Shown one piece after another: positions 20,122 to 24,886 of a stretch of 35,647 bases of DNA (position 1 is its first letter; every line of letters starts with the position of its first letter). Both the position numbers and the translations under genes were made by a program. The stretch spans positions 1-35,647 of the forward strand of contig JAYTBU010000027.1 in assembly GCA_043736875.1 (NCBI GenBank), read 5' to 3'. The notes under the pieces were generated by a model, which saw only the letters and a list, made by a program, of their open reading frames with translations, ran no database searches and was not told the origin of the DNA. The DNA is from a bacterium (GTDB taxonomy: Bacteria > Patescibacteriota > Minisyncoccia > Phycocordibacterales > UBA5272).

Positions 20122-21147
20122 ATGTACAAAGGATTTTGGAAAGATATACAGGAAAAAGCTGAATCAGAAAATAGGCCGATATACACTTTGGCTCCGATGG
20201 CCGATGTGACCGACGTGGCTTTTCGTCACATGATAGCGAAACATGGTAAACCAGATGTGACTTGGACAGAGTTCGTATCTTGTAATGGCCTCATGAGTGC
20301 AGGCAGGGAAGTGCTTAAAAGAGATCTAGAATACAGTGAGATAGAGAGACCGATAGTGGCTCAGCTATTTACCAATGATCCAGAAACTATGGAGGGGGCA
20401 GCACGTTTATGTCTTGAGCTTGGTTTTGATGGTATAGATATAAATATGGGCTGCCCAGTAAATACTATAGGCAAGCAAGGTGCTGGAGCAGGTCTTATAA
20501 AAACTCCAGACATAGCTCAGCAGCTCATATATGCGGCTCAGAGAGGTGCAGTGCTAAAAGATGATGCTGGTAACATCTTGAAGCAAATCCCCGTCACAGT
20601 AAAGACCAGATTAGGATATCATAGAACTGATGAGTACAAGGAGTGGCTCTCTAAAATATTGGAATGCAATGTTCCAGTTCTTAGTCTTCATCTACGCACA
20701 AAACAAGAGATGTCTCTGGTACCAGCCCATTACGAAATGATTGATGAGGTGCATGACTTTGTAAAAGAAAAATCTCCCGATACTATATTTATAATTAATG
20801 GTGATATCAAAAACATAAAACACTCGCAAGAATTGTATGAAAAATACAAAATAGACGGTGTGATGATAGGCAGAGGAATATTTGGAACGCCGTGGCTTTT
20901 TAATAGAGAAAGAGATACAAAAGGTTTAGAGTACTCTTTAAAAGAAAAATTAGAAATAATGCTAGAGCACACAAAGCTTTTTCAAGAAAAATTAAGTGAT
21001 ATAAAAAGTTTTTCTATTATGAAAAAGCATTACAAAGCATATGTTAATGGTTTTGATGGGGCAAAAGAATTGAGGGAGAGACTGTTTGAAACAAATGATT
21101 ATGATGAAGTAGAAAAGATAATTCTAGAATATATAAAAAGTATATAG
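20122..21147 (+). CDS. dus: tRNA-dihydrouridine synthase
   Basis: 341 aa with LAPMADVTDVAFR, DINMGCP and VKTRLG motifs typical of the Dus family. Confidence 0.9.
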   Translation: MYKGFWKDIQEKAESENRPIYTLAPMADVTDVAFRHMIAKHGKPDVTWTEFVSCNGLMSAGREVLKRDLEYSEIERPIVAQLFTNDPETMEGAARLCLELGFDGIDINMGCPVNTIGKQGAGAGLIKTPDIAQQLIYAAQRGAVLKDDAGNILKQIPVTVKTRLGYHRTDEYKEWLSKILECNVPVLSLHLRTKQEMSLVPAHYEMIDEVHDFVKEKSPDTIFIINGDIKNIKHSQELYEKYKIDGVMIGRGIFGTPWLFNRERDTKGLEYSLKEKLEIMLEHTKLFQEKLSDIKSFSIMKKHYKAYVNGFDGAKELRERLFETNDYDEVEKIILEYIKSI

Positions 21148-21453
21148 TTTTATTTATTAGTATATTTGTGGATAAGTGTTGAAAATTAATTTATATTTTA
21201 TCTCTTATATAGTATAATATAAATATATAAAATAATTAAAATAAAATATATGGCAAAAAAAGAACAACATGGTGGACGTGAAGCTAAAAAACCAAAAAAA
21301 GTAGTTGTTAAAAAATAGTTTAAAATAAGGGTAAAAATCATTTGAATTTTTTTTGAAAATAGTGTATAATGTAAACATAGATTTGATAGAGTAATCTTTC
21401 AAGTCTAGTAAGTAAAAATAATTTATTTCCAAATTTTTTATTTTTACTAACAT

Positions 21454-21528
21454 TCCGTGATAGCTCAGCGGTAGAGCAGTTCCCTGTTAAGGAATTGGTC
21501 GTAGGTTCGATCCCTACTCACGGAGCCA
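21454..21528 (+). tRNA. tRNA-Asn: tRNA-Asn (GTT), CCA encoded
   Basis: Acceptor TCCGTGA/TCACGGA. D arm GCTC-AGCGGTA-GAGC. Anticodon arm GTTCC-CTGTTAA-GGAAT. T arm GTAGG-TTCGATC-CCTAC. Ends in G-CCA. Confidence 0.9.
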
Positions 21529-21535
21529 GAAAAAT

Positions 21536-21567
21536 AAAACCTCTCATCTGAGAGTTTTTATTTTTTA
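21536..21567 (+). terminator. Weak hairpin plus long T run after tRNA-Asn
   Basis: CTCTC-ATCT-GAGAG followed by TTTTTATTTTTT. Confidence 0.45.
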
Positions 21568-21572
21568 TCAGC

Positions 21573-21617
21573 TATATTTATTTTAGATAAAGTGTGGTAT
21601 CATAAAATCATGAAATT
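21573..21617 (+). repeat. 45-bp direct repeat, copy 1 (decayed copy of the pseudouridine-synthase promoter and start)
   Basis: TATATTTATTTTAGATAAAGTGTGGTATcATAAAATCATGAAATT is identical to 22181-22225 except C/A at 21601/22209. That change turns TATAAT into TATCAT. Confidence 0.9.
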
Positions 21618-21711
21618 ATGGAAGAAGTAAATCCACAAATGACTCGATTAATAGTAGATAAAAGTATGGAAAGTAAACAAGAAACATTTTCAGTAAATTG
21701 TTAATAAAAAT

Positions 21712-22194
21712 ATGAAAAAAGGCTATCTTAGTTTTAGTTTAAATAAAAAATCTAATGATGATGTTGCTAAATTTGTCAATTCTTTAAATGAAAGTATTTT
21801 TGCACATAAAAATATTAACGGTAAAATAATAGGTGGTAAAGAAAAAGATTTACATATGACTTTATTTTTTGGTATTAATGATGAAAAGTTGAATAGTGGA
21901 AAAATGAATACTTTTTTAGAAAGTGTAAAATTAAAATCATTAAACGTAAAAGATTTAGACTTATTTAAGATAAAGGGAATGAAAGAAAAAGTTTTAGTTA
22001 TAAAATTAGAAAAAAATGAAGAATTAGAAAAACTTAGAAATTCTGTTTTTAATTTTGATTATTTTGAAGATGGATTTACTAACAGCTACACTCCACACAT
22101 AACATTGGGTTATGTAAAATCTGGTATAAATATTTCTAATATGAGCATAAATATTAAAAGTGTTGATTTCGAAAAACCTTTATATTTATTTTAG
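21712..22194 (+). CDS. 2H phosphoesterase superfamily protein (LigT/cyclic phosphodiesterase-like)
   Basis: 160 aa with two H-x-T-x motifs at the expected spacing (LHMTLFFG and PHITLGYV). Very AT-rich. The last codons and the stop lie inside repeat copy 2. Confidence 0.65.
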   Translation: MKKGYLSFSLNKKSNDDVAKFVNSLNESIFAHKNINGKIIGGKEKDLHMTLFFGINDEKLNSGKMNTFLESVKLKSLNVKDLDLFKIKGMKEKVLVIKLEKNEELEKLRNSVFNFDYFEDGFTNSYTPHITLGYVKSGINISNMSINIKSVDFEKPLYLF

Positions 22195-22225
22195 ATAAAG
22201 TGTGGTATAATAAAATCATGAAATT
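22181..22225 (+). repeat. 45-bp direct repeat, copy 2 (functional TGgTATAAT promoter and start of the pseudouridine synthase gene)
   Basis: Matches 21573-21617 at 44 of 45 positions. Contains TG at 22203-22204, TATAAT at 22206-22211 and the ATG at 22218 (6-nt gap). Confidence 0.9.
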
Positions 22226-22886
22226 CACAGTAAAAAACACAGGTAGAATAAATAAAGCAATACAGGATACTGGTATGTATTCGCGTCGTGAGGCTGATTC
22301 GTTAATAGAAAGGAGAAAAGTACATGTTAATGACACTTTTGGATATTTGGGTATGCAGGTGAGAGAGGGTGATAGTATAGAGATACGTTCTGGCACAGCA
22401 CAAATAGAAAAGAAATTAGAATATGCGCTTTATTATAAACCAATAGGAGAAGTGACTAGTACAAAAGAAGCAGAACTATTAAAAGGTTTACACCCAGTTG
22501 GCAGATTAGACAAAGAATCAGAAGGGTTGCTGGTATATACAAATGATCCGACACTAACCGAGGCACTGATGAACCCTGAAAATAAAATTGAAAAAGAGTA
22601 TAGAGTTAAGACGAGAGAAAAGAGCTCTCCTAGAGTACCACGCATCATGATGAGTGGTATGTATACTCAAGAAGAAAAGTATGCGCCAGCCAAAATGGTA
22701 AAAGTAGATGATGGGGGACATCACTTGACTGTTGTTCTGGTTGAGGGTAAAAAACATGAGATAAGACGTATGTTAAATGCTCTGAATATGACTATTGTTA
22801 GTCTGAAAAGAATCAGAATACACAATCTGAAAATAGGAACTATGAAGCCTGGACAGATAAAGAAAATAGAGAGACCGGTTATTTAG
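22218..22886 (+). CDS. Pseudouridine synthase, RsuA/RluB/RluF family
   Basis: 222 aa counted from the ATG at 22218. N-terminal S4-like segment (INKAIQDTGMYSRREADSLIERRKVHVN) and catalytic motif VGRLDKESEGLLVYTND. Confidence 0.85.
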   Translation: MKFTVKNTGRINKAIQDTGMYSRREADSLIERRKVHVNDTFGYLGMQVREGDSIEIRSGTAQIEKKLEYALYYKPIGEVTSTKEAELLKGLHPVGRLDKESEGLLVYTNDPTLTEALMNPENKIEKEYRVKTREKSSPRVPRIMMSGMYTQEEKYAPAKMVKVDDGGHHLTVVLVEGKKHEIRRMLNALNMTIVSLKRIRIHNLKIGTMKPGQIKKIERPVI

Positions 22887-22894
22887 TTTTTTGC

Positions 22895-22926
22895 TTGACA
22901 GTATGGGGGGGGGTCTATGCTATAAT
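22895..22926 (+). promoter_or_regulatory. Promoter with consensus TTGACA and TGcTATAAT separated by a 20-nt spacer containing a G9 homopolymer
   Basis: TTGACA at 22895-22900, G9 at 22905-22913, TG at 22918-22919, TATAAT at 22921-22926. An in-frame ATG follows after exactly 6 nt, at 22933. Confidence 0.55.
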
Positions 22927-22932
22927 TTAGTC

Positions 22933-23508
22933 ATGTTTAAGTATTTAGGGTTTGCGTTCTGCGGACCTGACTTAACACACAGAATTATATTCTGTAAATT
23001 GTTCTTTCAGGAGATTGTCATGGAAATGAAAATTGTTTTAAAAAGACCAGCAGTCAAATCATCTCTACTTGATGCAAGGCTGCATTCAGGTGAAAAAGAA
23101 GACTTTATTGTTTGGGGCAAGATCATTGTTGCAGATTTTGAAAGAGAGAAGTCTTACCTCTCAATGACAAAATCATATTCACAAGATAAGGTTGCTGAAA
23201 TGGAGCTAGAATTTAAAAAATACATGTTCCTTTCTTCAAAGTATAAAGATTTAAAATTACCAATGTCTAGGGGTGTAGACGATTTCTGGCACACCGCCAT
23301 TCTAAATACTAGAAACTATCAAACTTTCTGTGAAGAGGTTTTGGGAAGATTTATTCACCACATGCCTACTATTTCAGATGAAGAAAATTGGTCACTTATG
23401 CCAGAGTATTTAAAGAACACAATACCTCTTTACTCTAAACACTTTGGTGCATGTCCAGATCAATACTGGAAGACAGGTTCACATAAAGAATCTTGTTGTA
23501 TTTGCTGA
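22933..23508 (+). CDS. Protein with a WHTAIL...Y..FC...G...HH block (DUF1399/GRDP-like, from memory) and a Cys-rich C-terminus; alternative SD-preceded start at 23020
   Basis: The frame is open from 22891. The ATG at 22933 has the leaderless 6-nt spacing. The ATG at 23020 is preceded by AGGAG (23009-23013). The protein contains DDFWHTAILNTRNYQTFCEEVLGRFIHHMP and ends ...GACPDQYWKTGSHKESCCIC. It carries the only TGA stop seen in the window. Confidence 0.55.
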   Translation: MFKYLGFAFCGPDLTHRIIFCKLFFQEIVMEMKIVLKRPAVKSSLLDARLHSGEKEDFIVWGKIIVADFEREKSYLSMTKSYSQDKVAEMELEFKKYMFLSSKYKDLKLPMSRGVDDFWHTAILNTRNYQTFCEEVLGRFIHHMPTISDEENWSLMPEYLKNTIPLYSKHFGACPDQYWKTGSHKESCCIC

Positions 23509-23563: not shown

Positions 23564-24886
23564 ATGAAAAAAGAAATTTTTATACTAAATACACTTTCTA
23601 AAGAAAAAGAAAAATTTACCCCTCTCAGAGAGGGTGAGGTTAAAATATATCACTGTGGTCCTACGGTCTACTGGAATCAGCACATAGGAAATATGAGAGC
23701 TGTTTTTTTTGCTGACATAATAAATAGGGTTTTTAGGTTTAATAATTACAAGGTGATTCTGGTTAGAAATTATACAGATGTTGGGCATCTTACTGGTGAC
23801 AACATAGGAGATGCTGACACTGGTATCGATAGAATGGAGAAAGCTTCTCTGAGAGAAGGTCTATCTGCTTTAGAAATATCTAACAAGTATATAAGTTCAT
23901 ATCTAGAAGATATAAAAATGTTGAATGTTATACTCCCAGATTTTACACCATCTGCAACAGAGCATATTGTTGACATGATTAATATGGTTGAGATTTTAAT
24001 ATCCAAAGGTTTTGCTTACATTACAGATCTGGCAGTATATTTTGATGTTAAGAAAGCTAAAGATTATTATAGACTGTCTGGTCAAAAGTTTTCTAAATTA
24101 AAAGAAGGGGAAGGTTTTGGCCAGGTATCAGATTTAAATAAAAGAAATAGTAATGATTTTGCCTTATGGTTTTTTAGAGCAGGTACACACTCTAACATAT
24201 TACAGTTTTGGAGCTCCCCCTTCAAGTCTTCTTTGGTAGAAAATGGACAAGGTTTCCCTGGTTGGCATATAGAGTGTTCAGCTATGAGTAAATTTTTTCT
24301 AGGAAATAGTTTCGATATTCATCTCGGCGGAATAGAACACATTCCAATACATCATACAAATGAAATAGCTCAATCAGAAAATGCTAACGGAGAGAAGTAT
24401 GTCAATTATTGGATGCATAATGAGCATTTACTTGTGGAGAATAAGAAAATGTCAAAGTCAGAAGGTACATCTTTTTTACTAAGCGATGTAATCAGTATGG
24501 TAGATAATTTTGATGGAAATAAAAAAATCTCAGAATCTTTGAAGGCTTTAGTTTTAAGATATTTTTTCTTGCAAGCTCACTACAGATCAAAACAAAATTT
24601 TACAACAGAAGCACTAAAAGCTTCTTTTTCAGCCTATAATAAATTATTAAATAAGATTCATTTTATGGGGCTAGAGTCCTCACATTTTTTTGGAGTTGTT
24701 AATGAGCATTATATTAATAAGTTTACTTTGGTTATAAATGATGATTTTAATACTCCCAAAGGTTTAGCTATTTTGTGGGAGCTCATAAAGGATAAAGATG
24801 TTTCAAATTCTGAAAAATTAGAAACTATTTTTGAGATGGATAAAGTGCTAGGTTTAAATTTAAAAATAGAGAGGCCTGTTATCTAG
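23564..24886 (+). CDS. cysS: Cysteine-tRNA ligase
   Basis: 440 aa counted from the ATG at 23564. Contains CGPTVY...HIGN (HIGH motif), WHIECS and KMSKS. The upstream extension in the ORF track overlaps the previous gene and a terminator. Confidence 0.92.
   Translation: MKKEIFILNTLSKEKEKFTPLREGEVKIYHCGPTVYWNQHIGNMRAVFFADIINRVFRFNNYKVILVRNYTDVGHLTGDNIGDADTGIDRMEKASLREGLSALEISNKYISSYLEDIKMLNVILPDFTPSATEHIVDMINMVEILISKGFAYITDLAVYFDVKKAKDYYRLSGQKFSKLKEGEGFGQVSDLNKRNSNDFALWFFRAGTHSNILQFWSSPFKSSLVENGQGFPGWHIECSAMSKFFLGNSFDIHLGGIEHIPIHHTNEIAQSENANGEKYVNYWMHNEHLLVENKKMSKSEGTSFLLSDVISMVDNFDGNKKISESLKALVLRYFFLQAHYRSKQNFTTEALKASFSAYNKLLNKIHFMGLESSHFFGVVNEHYINKFTLVINDDFNTPKGLAILWELIKDKDVSNSEKLETIFEMDKVLGLNLKIERPVI

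Follow-up and report, generated by a model that had tools for sequence, protein, structure and literature searches.

Recent horizontal acquisition of a 2H phosphoesterase gene with duplication of a housekeeping promoter in a patescibacterial genome

Introduction

Insertion sequences (IS) and transposons typically duplicate 2-14 bp of their target, and integron cassettes are promoterless. Here we describe an inserted gene whose flanking direct repeats are 45 bp long and have the layout of a promoter. It lies in a window of 35,647 nucleotides (nt), the whole stretch of DNA that we analysed (positions 1 to 35,647 of contig JAYTBU010000027.1, assembly GCA_043736875.1), from a bacterium of the Patescibacteriota (Minisyncoccia; Phycocordibacterales; UBA5272). 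The gene encodes a 2H phosphoesterase of 160 amino acids (aa), and the second repeat copy leads directly into a pseudouridine synthase gene. An earlier note on the same DNA, made from the sequence alone, had spoken of a mobile cassette. What we find is a gene recently acquired by horizontal transfer, together with a duplicated promoter; a mobile cassette is not demonstrated, as the unit occurs once and shows no terminal structure, the 3' end of the gene is missing, and its only close homologue belongs to a two-gene operon that lacks such repeats.

Among the described 2H enzymes, two groups serve as points of reference for the inserted gene. The ThpR subfamily is defined by the motifs HxTxxF and HxTxxR, with Arg130 being essential (PMC4201822). 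The FBB1 Acb1 enzyme closes a lid of residues 145-152, including W147, over its ligand (PMC9117128).

The repeat and its assembly

The two copies of the 45-mer, TATATTTATTTTAGATAAAGTGTGGTAT(C/A)ATAAAATCATGAAATT, occupy positions 21573-21617 (copy 1) and 22181-22225 (copy 2) of the forward strand, which also carries all the other features whose window coordinates are given for this locus. The copies are 608 bp apart and differ at a single position, C at 21601 in copy 1 and A at 22209 in copy 2, the fourth base of a -10 hexamer. The earlier note had described this pair and its one mismatch, and we recovered both from the sequence and from an independent assembly. No match to the 45-mer arose in 100 shuffles. 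The note had also proposed a search for other copies of the 45-mer or the cassette: the window contains no additional copy of the 45-mer at up to three mismatches, and the 653-bp unit is single-copy in the whole genome (668,598 bp in 55 contigs).

The genome is a 55-contig metagenome bin, and the contigs of relatives frequently break at the tRNA-Asn gene just upstream, so that both repeat and cassette might be thought to come from reads of different strains wrongly joined together. However, a Logan contig of 3421 nt, built from the source run by another assembler (k=31), crosses 21499-23200 with zero differences and an even depth of 12.2. The longest exact stretches common to both copies are 28 and 16 nt, below the k-mer length, and therefore the path through both copies is unambiguous; the one-base difference likewise keeps the copies distinct in the assembly graph. 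Given an unambiguous independent path and an even depth, we consider an assembly artefact extremely improbable.

Foreign origin of the 2H gene

Between the copies lies a segment of about 563 bp (21618-22180; GC 22.4%) that appears foreign from its composition and from its absence in relatives and in the contigs of near-identical strains. That its gene is a newcomer, as the earlier note had supposed, is confirmed by several observations. None of 40 relatives, including 12 of the same genus, has the 2H gene (21712-22194), whose GC content is 21.5% against 33% for the genome. The family profile, run on 400 additional genomes from the phylum, gave only weak ThpR-like matches of ~190 aa, in 31 of them, and GTDB genome contigs searched with the 2H alignment gave no match. 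Among 5.8 billion clusters the gene had two members only, and the sole close relative, P0002 (77% aa identity), sits on a 636-kb JGI contig (L027) and on a Logan contig. The L027 gene is ~76-77% identical to ours at the aa level, with 481 nt of DNA aligned. Other proteins common to both genomes are mostly 23-38% identical, the best local match being 55% over 130 aa (UvrD), and to judge from these values the L027 genome, itself small, is only distantly related to this one. Sequence comparison thus shows the gene to be foreign to this genome and supports its recent horizontal acquisition.

On L027 a PolyA_pol/CCA-type nucleotidyltransferase gene and the 2H gene overlap by 8 nt at the end of the former, and GC content is 24% in the 2H gene, 28% in its upstream partner and 35-40% in the neighbours. 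The two genes form an AT-rich island (L027:4719-6504), in which the partner encodes a 429-aa protein that has, of the PolyA_pol/CCA family, just the nucleotidyltransferase head, joined to an unknown C-terminal half. This island looks horizontally acquired there too, and no direct repeats comparable to the 45-mer flank it.

DNA homology to L027 is limited to window positions 21704-22184. On the right this homology gives out where copy 2 begins, at 22181, and there the microhomology TATA (22181-22184) is common to both. Because the homology stops at copy 2, the insert carries a gene cut about four codons short: the protein ends in KPLYLF here versus KPLYKAKNF in L027. The last conserved residue, Y158, is retained, and the codons from Y158 onward as well as the stop lie inside copy 2, so the alignment of the junction bears out the earlier suggestion that the tail of this open reading frame (ORF) derives from the repeat. 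The left part of the insert (21618-21704, 86 nt) contains an ORF of 28 codons whose end lies 7 nt ahead of the 2H ATG and which may permit translational coupling to the 2H gene. We tried this part as a remnant of the L027 nucleotidyltransferase gene and rejected it, since neither DNA nor protein alignments were better than those of shuffled sequences. The ends of the insert show no inverted repeats, and no integrase or transposase domain is encoded within ~5 kb, in agreement with the earlier note; the only tyrosine recombinase (Phage_integrase) of the assembly is on contig C20.

Promoters within the repeat

Copy 2 contains TG-g-TATAAT (hexamer 22206-22211), then 6 nt, then the pseudouridine synthase ATG at 22218 and a further 5 nt of that gene, so that the repeat covers roughly -37 to +8 relative to the start codon. 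Orthologues of the pseudouridine synthase gene in three genomes (G007, G005, G011) have TG-a-TATTAT, 6 nt and ATG at the equivalent position. The working-promoter layout ascribed to copy 2 in the earlier note is thereby upheld by the geometry of genus orthologues, and we take copy 2 to be the native pseudouridine synthase promoter, with an extended -10 element and leaderless geometry. The transcript, on the evidence of promoter geometry alone, would be leaderless and start at or beside the start codon.

Copy 1 repeats this arrangement with TGgTATCAT (hexamer 21598-21603), 6 nt and ATG at 21610, the duplicated pseudouridine synthase start codon, from which a six-codon stub (MKLWKK*, 21610-21630) begins. 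Its -10 element had been described as broken, and here we differ: TATCAT retains T1, A2 and T6 of the hexamer as well as the upstream TG. The first, second and sixth bases of the -10 element and the TG are the positions that matter most. An intrinsic terminator of the tRNA-Asn gene (21541-21565), recognised in inverted-repeat and promoter scans and made up of the hairpin CTCTCATCTGAGAG at 21541-21554 and a T-run, shields the downstream genes from read-through. Between this terminator and 21712 the promoter scan showed no forward-strand promoter-like site besides copy 1. As the sole evident promoter in this interval, copy 1 is more likely to drive the 2H gene, and it is probably that gene's promoter, possibly weakened, rather than a dead relic.

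We suggest, with moderate confidence, that the locus arose by a one-off illegitimate insertion of the ~563-bp fragment into the promoter and start region of the pseudouridine synthase gene, with duplication of 45 bp of the target. The donor would have been another small-genome bacterium or its mobile DNA. A microhomology or template-switch event would have joined the fragment, which carried the 2H gene minus its last ~4 codons, to a target with leaderless geometry, and the stretch from about -37 to +8 would have been duplicated in the process. Copy 1 would then drive the 2H gene behind the terminator, and copy 2 the housekeeping gene. Selection would retain an insertion only where neither gene fell silent, and this would account for a duplication that corresponds exactly to a promoter.

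The same end state could have been reached in two steps, if the 2H fragment landed between terminator and promoter and the promoter was duplicated upstream later, by slippage or unequal exchange, activating a silent gene. The C/A difference does show that the copies have had some time to diverge. However, this account needs two rare events where one suffices, and the 2H ORF loses its native end exactly where copy 2 starts, which indicates that the insertion itself formed that junction. We therefore regard a two-step origin as very unlikely.

Strain variation and the ancestral locus

The tRNA-Asn gene (anticodon GTT; 21454-21528), detected by ARAGORN and by the Rfam tRNA model (69.7 bits), has its own promoter at 21342-21370, and a Rfam scan of 20900-23100 returned the tRNA and no other RNA family. 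The repeat begins 45 nt past the end of the tRNA and does not contain the tRNA 3' end. The proximity of the tRNA thus looks incidental; the earlier note had given weight to it, and we see the tRNA as probably a bystander. The neighbours of the locus, in what is a cellular contig, are the tRNA, Dus, pseudouridine synthase and CysS genes. The pseudouridine synthase gene itself (22218-22886) encodes a 222-aa protein of the RluB/RluF/RsuA group with an S4 domain and a PseudoU_synth_2 domain (Pfam 2.3e-19, with NCBIfam support), and has orthologues in 33 of 41 relatives. The genome has two cysteinyl-tRNA synthetase genes that are 37% identical, one in the window (23564-24886) and one on another contig (C54:12397-13764).

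The earlier note had reconstructed an ancestral order of tRNA-Asn, terminator and pseudouridine synthase gene, and had proposed that relatives be compared for the empty site. We made that comparison and found no usable empty site among the relatives examined, so the state before insertion is a matter of inference, and no relative shows the proposed order. In the closest orthologous loci (70% aa identity; eight genomes of the same genus), the order is an RNase J gene, an MFS-like gene, the pseudouridine synthase gene and, convergent with it, a Dus gene, with no tRNA. In five genomes of the genus (G001, G002, G003, G008 and G009) a distance of 7-9 kb separates tRNA-Asn from the pseudouridine synthase gene, the two being on opposite strands, and the neighbours of tRNA-Asn are unrelated between genomes of the genus.

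Strain contigs that are 95-99.6% identical over 21254-21534 (X2, X3, X5, X13) have differing sequence directly past the tRNA, and those that are ~97-98% identical in the pseudouridine synthase gene diverge at 22214 (X2) and 22211 (X9), 4 and 7 nt before the ATG. These contigs are of low depth, with only 30-nt loose ends seen, and paths through the tRNA can be chimeric; read within that limit, the tRNA-Asn edge and the edge at the pseudouridine synthase start look like recombination breakpoints. The contigs of X2, X3, X5, X9 and X13 apparently also diverge from each other past tRNA-Asn or before the ATG. No near-identical strain contig contains the cassette: those that are 96-99.6% identical in the flanks stop short of 21535-22213, and the cassette is therefore strain-specific. 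Apparent 2H matches in X4-X6 were set aside as chance matches of 35-40 nt in AT-rich sequence. A search of JGI metagenome contigs with the pseudouridine synthase protein gave no match, and exact-protein look-ups of Dus and pseudouridine synthase found neither outside the source sample.

Two further observations concern the tRNA region. The stretch 21254-21460, which comprises a micro-ORF and the tRNA-Asn promoter, occurs in over 20 runs from freshwater, drinking water and wastewater, one of them a metatranscriptome (X17), at 95-99.6% identity where aligned. Contigs of five same-genus genomes (G001, G003, G004, G006, G009) often end at tRNA-Asn or no more than ~100 nt from it, which suggests strain heterogeneity or a repeat at this site across the genus.

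A repeat-insert-repeat structure with near-identical repeats is also the classic product of a single crossover. A circle carrying the 2H gene and one 45-mer, excised for example from a sister strain, could have recombined with a chromosomal 45-mer, Campbell-fashion, and the product could excise again by recombination between its repeats. Yet 45 bp is very short for RecA-dependent recombination, and an illegitimate event would still be needed to bring the 2H gene and the 45-mer together in the first place. No circular or empty form was present in contigs of the source run, no joint skipping the 608 bp was found in the contigs of 14 runs, and a search of IMG/VR viral contigs did not find the 45-mer. 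Integration of this kind seems to us unlikely, and a single illegitimate insertion remains the reading we prefer.

A second locus and gene arrays

A genome-wide direct-repeat scan revealed a second locus of similar structure on contig C45 (1156-1845, minus strand; L078/L062), in the order dnaJ, 47-bp repeat, NYN gene, identical 47-bp repeat, trpS. The NYN-domain RNase gene (182 aa; PF01936, 5e-15) has a GC content of 28%. The repeat, GTTTCAAGATTTTCTATATTTTTATTTTATGGTATAATATAAATATG, is perfect and represents the trpS promoter, again of leaderless geometry, with an extended -10 element, 6 nt and ATG; it ends exactly at the ATG, and therefore the upstream copy supplies the start codon of the NYN gene. 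In the source run the repeat forms a separate unitig with a depth of 23.5, compared with 11-12 in the flanks, and the trpS orthologues of the genus have the same promoter geometry. Relatives at ~90-93% identity in runs X14 and X29 also carry the NYN gene beside trpS, which makes the event on C45 an older one.

The genome further contains three arrays of small genes, each on one strand and separated by repeats of 45-94 nt, at C8:1100-7100 (L075), C30:4583-5978 (L076) and C25:9192-10614 (L077). Their genes include three to four DUF3800 genes, three PemK/MazF-like genes, a methyltransferase gene and others. In the array repeat, a forward GTGTGGTATAAT promoter is accompanied by a TTGCAA-16-TATAAT promoter that points the other way. 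No obvious antitoxin gene accompanies the MazF-like genes.

These loci bear on whether a dedicated system is at work, in which a recombinase or nuclease acting in trans would target promoters of leaderless geometry with cuts staggered by ~45 bp and leave every captured accessory gene between promoter copies, repeated rounds building arrays of promoter-gene units. Two independent loci have repeats of 45 and 47 bp that are alike in geometry, each reaching from the -35 region to the start codon, and in the arrays on C8, C30 and C25 each gene is preceded by the same promoter-bearing repeat. In addition, three breakpoints lie no more than 15 nt from the start of the pseudouridine synthase gene (X9 at -7, X2 at -4, this genome at +8). 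On the other hand, no recombinase is near, the sole tyrosine recombinase being on another contig, and the 45- and 47-bp repeats share only a generic -10 core, so that there is no recognisable site. The junction truncates the 2H gene, unlike what would be expected of a cassette system with defined ends. With two cases in hand, selection for expression could by itself explain the duplication of whole promoters, and the arrays contain paralogues, so that tandem duplication could have made them. A dedicated system is in our view rather unlikely, and we continue to favour a one-off insertion at the pseudouridine synthase promoter.

The 2H enzyme

The model of the 160-aa product obtained with AlphaFold2 (AF2) on a 52-sequence alignment has a pLDDT of 95.8 and a pTM of 0.89; an earlier two-sequence alignment gave a pLDDT of 48. 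Foldseek comparison of the model with the Protein Data Bank (PDB), which the earlier note had proposed for LigT, CPDase and Acb1 structures, returned 2H enzymes for all of its top 44 matches, 40 of them at probability 1.00. In the sequence, the motifs are H48-M-T50-L-F-F53-G and P128-H129-I-T131-L-G-Y134; across 52 homologues H48, T50, G54 and H129 never vary, and 50 of the 52 have T or S at position 131. We regard the 2H fold, two lobes around a beta-sheet cleft, as established, because a confident model, structure matches and conserved motifs coincide, and the earlier assignment to the 2H phosphoesterases from two HxTx motifs is vindicated. Judged from motifs and model, the enzyme is predicted to be a catalytically complete, stand-alone 2H phosphodiesterase (PDE).

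The protein passes no curated Pfam or NCBIfam family threshold. Its Pfam scores, in bits against the cut-off, are 24.9/27 for 2H-SAK (2.5e-5), 21.5/27 for Acb1 (2e-4), 18.3/27 for 2_5_RNA_ligase2, 17.3/24.4 for AKAP7 and 17.2/23.3 for LigT_PEase; NCBIfam TIGR02258 (ThpR) matches at 1.3e-8 with 35 bits against a cut-off of 65.7, and PHROGs phrog_755 ('RNA ligase') at 4.5e-9. By these scans it is a member of the 2H superfamily that fits no curated subfamily. Of 1.84 billion representatives scanned in full with HMMER, 86 proved to be relatives (E<1e-3), and nearly all of these are stand-alone proteins of ~140-190 aa with 24-39% identity. Within the 52-member alignment, 34 match 2_5_RNA_ligase2 and 15 match Pfam Acb1.

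The most likely substrates, as we infer from sequence and gene context, are 2',3'-cyclic phosphates on the 3' ends of RNA or tRNA, or on nucleotides, with the enzyme healing ends before CCA repair. This role is favoured because of the operon and neighbourhood evidence: homologues lie in cellular contigs of up to 636 kb, the distant ones beside genes for PolyA_pol, DHH/DHHA1, several NUDIX proteins, HIT, RNase T and Ham1, and the L027 operon with a CCA/poly(A)-type nucleotidyltransferase fits RNA end-healing. Like ThpR/LigT (E. coli ThpR, Pyrococcus PH0099; TIGR02258), the protein has the 2H fold, two HxT motifs, a proximal HxTxx(F/Y) motif and a stand-alone length of ~160-180 aa, and PH0099 is the best solved-structure match of the family profile by sequence (1.1e-6). 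The proximal HxTxxF is present as H48xT50xxF53, with an aromatic residue at this position in 52/52 members.

Two observations weigh against this substrate. At the position of the essential ThpR Arg130 (PMC4201822) the protein has a Tyr (Y134), and among the 52 members this position is Tyr in 44, Phe in 7, His in 1 and Arg in none. The fold, moreover, resembles that of Acb1 and the poxvirus cGAMP PDEs slightly more than that of LigT/ThpR. The top PDB matches are a phage BCSR5 PDE, the penguinpox cGAMP PDE and FBB1 Acb1 (E 5e-6 to 3e-5, TM 0.58-0.66), and PH0099, Usb1 and LigT rank lower at TM ~0.5. In BFVD, the matches were phage proteins annotated 'cyclic phosphodiesterase-like' and '2'-5' RNA ligase', at TM up to 0.75, and Acb1 entries at ~0.6. 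Of the two roles that the earlier note had held compatible with the gene, LigT-like or Acb1-like, the fold thus leans slightly to the second, and the homologue contexts to cellular RNA and nucleotide housekeeping.

An Acb1-like enzyme would destroy the cyclic oligonucleotides of CBASS- or cGAS-type signalling, either as a phage relic or as the weapon of an episymbiont against the signalling of its host bacterium. Besides the ranking of the solved structures, the similarity of sequence to the penguinpox PDE (1.5e-5) and to Pfam Acb1, which 15 of the 52 family members match, points this way. So do the HxT/HxT tetrad and the similar size shared with the Acb1 and poxvirus enzymes (PF23474; PDB 7T26/7T27, 9BKQ, 9Q2G), and the distal PH-I-T-L-x-Y, which resembles their PH(I/V)T(L/I)xY rather than the HxTxxR of ThpR. 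However, the Pfam Acb1 score lies below the gathering score of 27 bits, and more members match 2_5_RNA_ligase2. The last strand of the model reaches residue 159 of 160, leaving no room for a C-terminal lid of the kind seen in Acb1 (PMC9117128), and in the alignment rows shown, the family tails are 2-10 residues long without a conserved Trp. All retrieved homologue contexts are cellular, beside RNA and nucleotide housekeeping genes, with no phage context among them, and the IMG/VR search with the 2H alignment found no viral relative. The gene described here likewise stands in a cellular genome with housekeeping neighbours. An Acb1-like function is possible though doubtful, and an RNA end-healing function is the one that we prefer.

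The plant and yeast cyclic phosphodiesterases CPDase/Cpd1, which act on Appr>p and 2',3'-cyclic nucleotides, also have a Tyr at the ThpR Arg130 position (PMC4201822), and Arabidopsis CPDase (1JH6) matches the model at TM 0.58. The similarity is only distant (E 3.6e-3), and the eukaryotic context of tRNA splicing is missing here. The enzyme defines a sparse 2H subfamily, with ~86 representative clusters among the 1.84 billion, between the RNA end-healing ThpR and the viral cyclic-nucleotide PDEs, and its substrate would help to place the functional boundary between these groups.

Discussion

A one-off insertion with promoter duplication fits the locus, and several points weigh against it. No empty site was found, and the gene order around the tRNA and pseudouridine synthase genes differs in every relative examined. 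In strain contigs X2 and X9 the sequence before the pseudouridine synthase gene lacks the initial ~30 nt of the 45-mer, which fits poorly with the 45-mer as the long-standing promoter of the species. Leaderless transcription and an active copy 1 are both read from geometry alone. Finally, a target duplication of 45 bp is far longer than usual, and the second duplication, similar in size at 47 bp, hints that a defined mechanism, more than accident, was at work.

A more general process of this sort can be imagined, although we would put little weight on it. Small genomes such as those of Patescibacteria might capture accessory genes (2H, NYN, MazF-like, DUF3800) by a defined process that strikes the open-complex region of promoters with leaderless geometry, the ~45-47 bp duplicated being about the size of a core promoter. 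Such a process would provide each new gene with a functioning promoter on arrival, and repeated hits might in this way build arrays that are integron-like and free of integrase. If promoter-duplicating insertion does turn out to be regular, it would account for the way in which ultra-small genomes, almost devoid of mobile-element machinery, nevertheless gain foreign genes and express them, and a direct repeat ending at a start codon in the leaderless position would be a simple signature for recent acquisitions. As it stands, the 2H locus is a well-documented single horizontal-transfer event with a modest twist, and it is the recurrence of the architecture that most deserves attention.

Among known systems, transposon target duplications, the repeat duplication that accompanies CRISPR spacer acquisition, and that of casposons resemble the locus in that a direct target repeat flanks the inserted DNA. 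The locus differs from IS elements and transposons in its 45-bp length of repeat, in lacking a transposase, inverted ends and a second copy, and in that the insert carries a truncated gene. With integron cassettes and tRNA-targeting islands it shares a single, promoter-dependent accessory gene beside a tRNA, and the genome has repeat-separated arrays of small genes elsewhere. Unlike those systems, it has no adjacent integrase and no attC-like imperfect palindrome, and the repeat, rather than containing the 3' end of the tRNA, is here a promoter.

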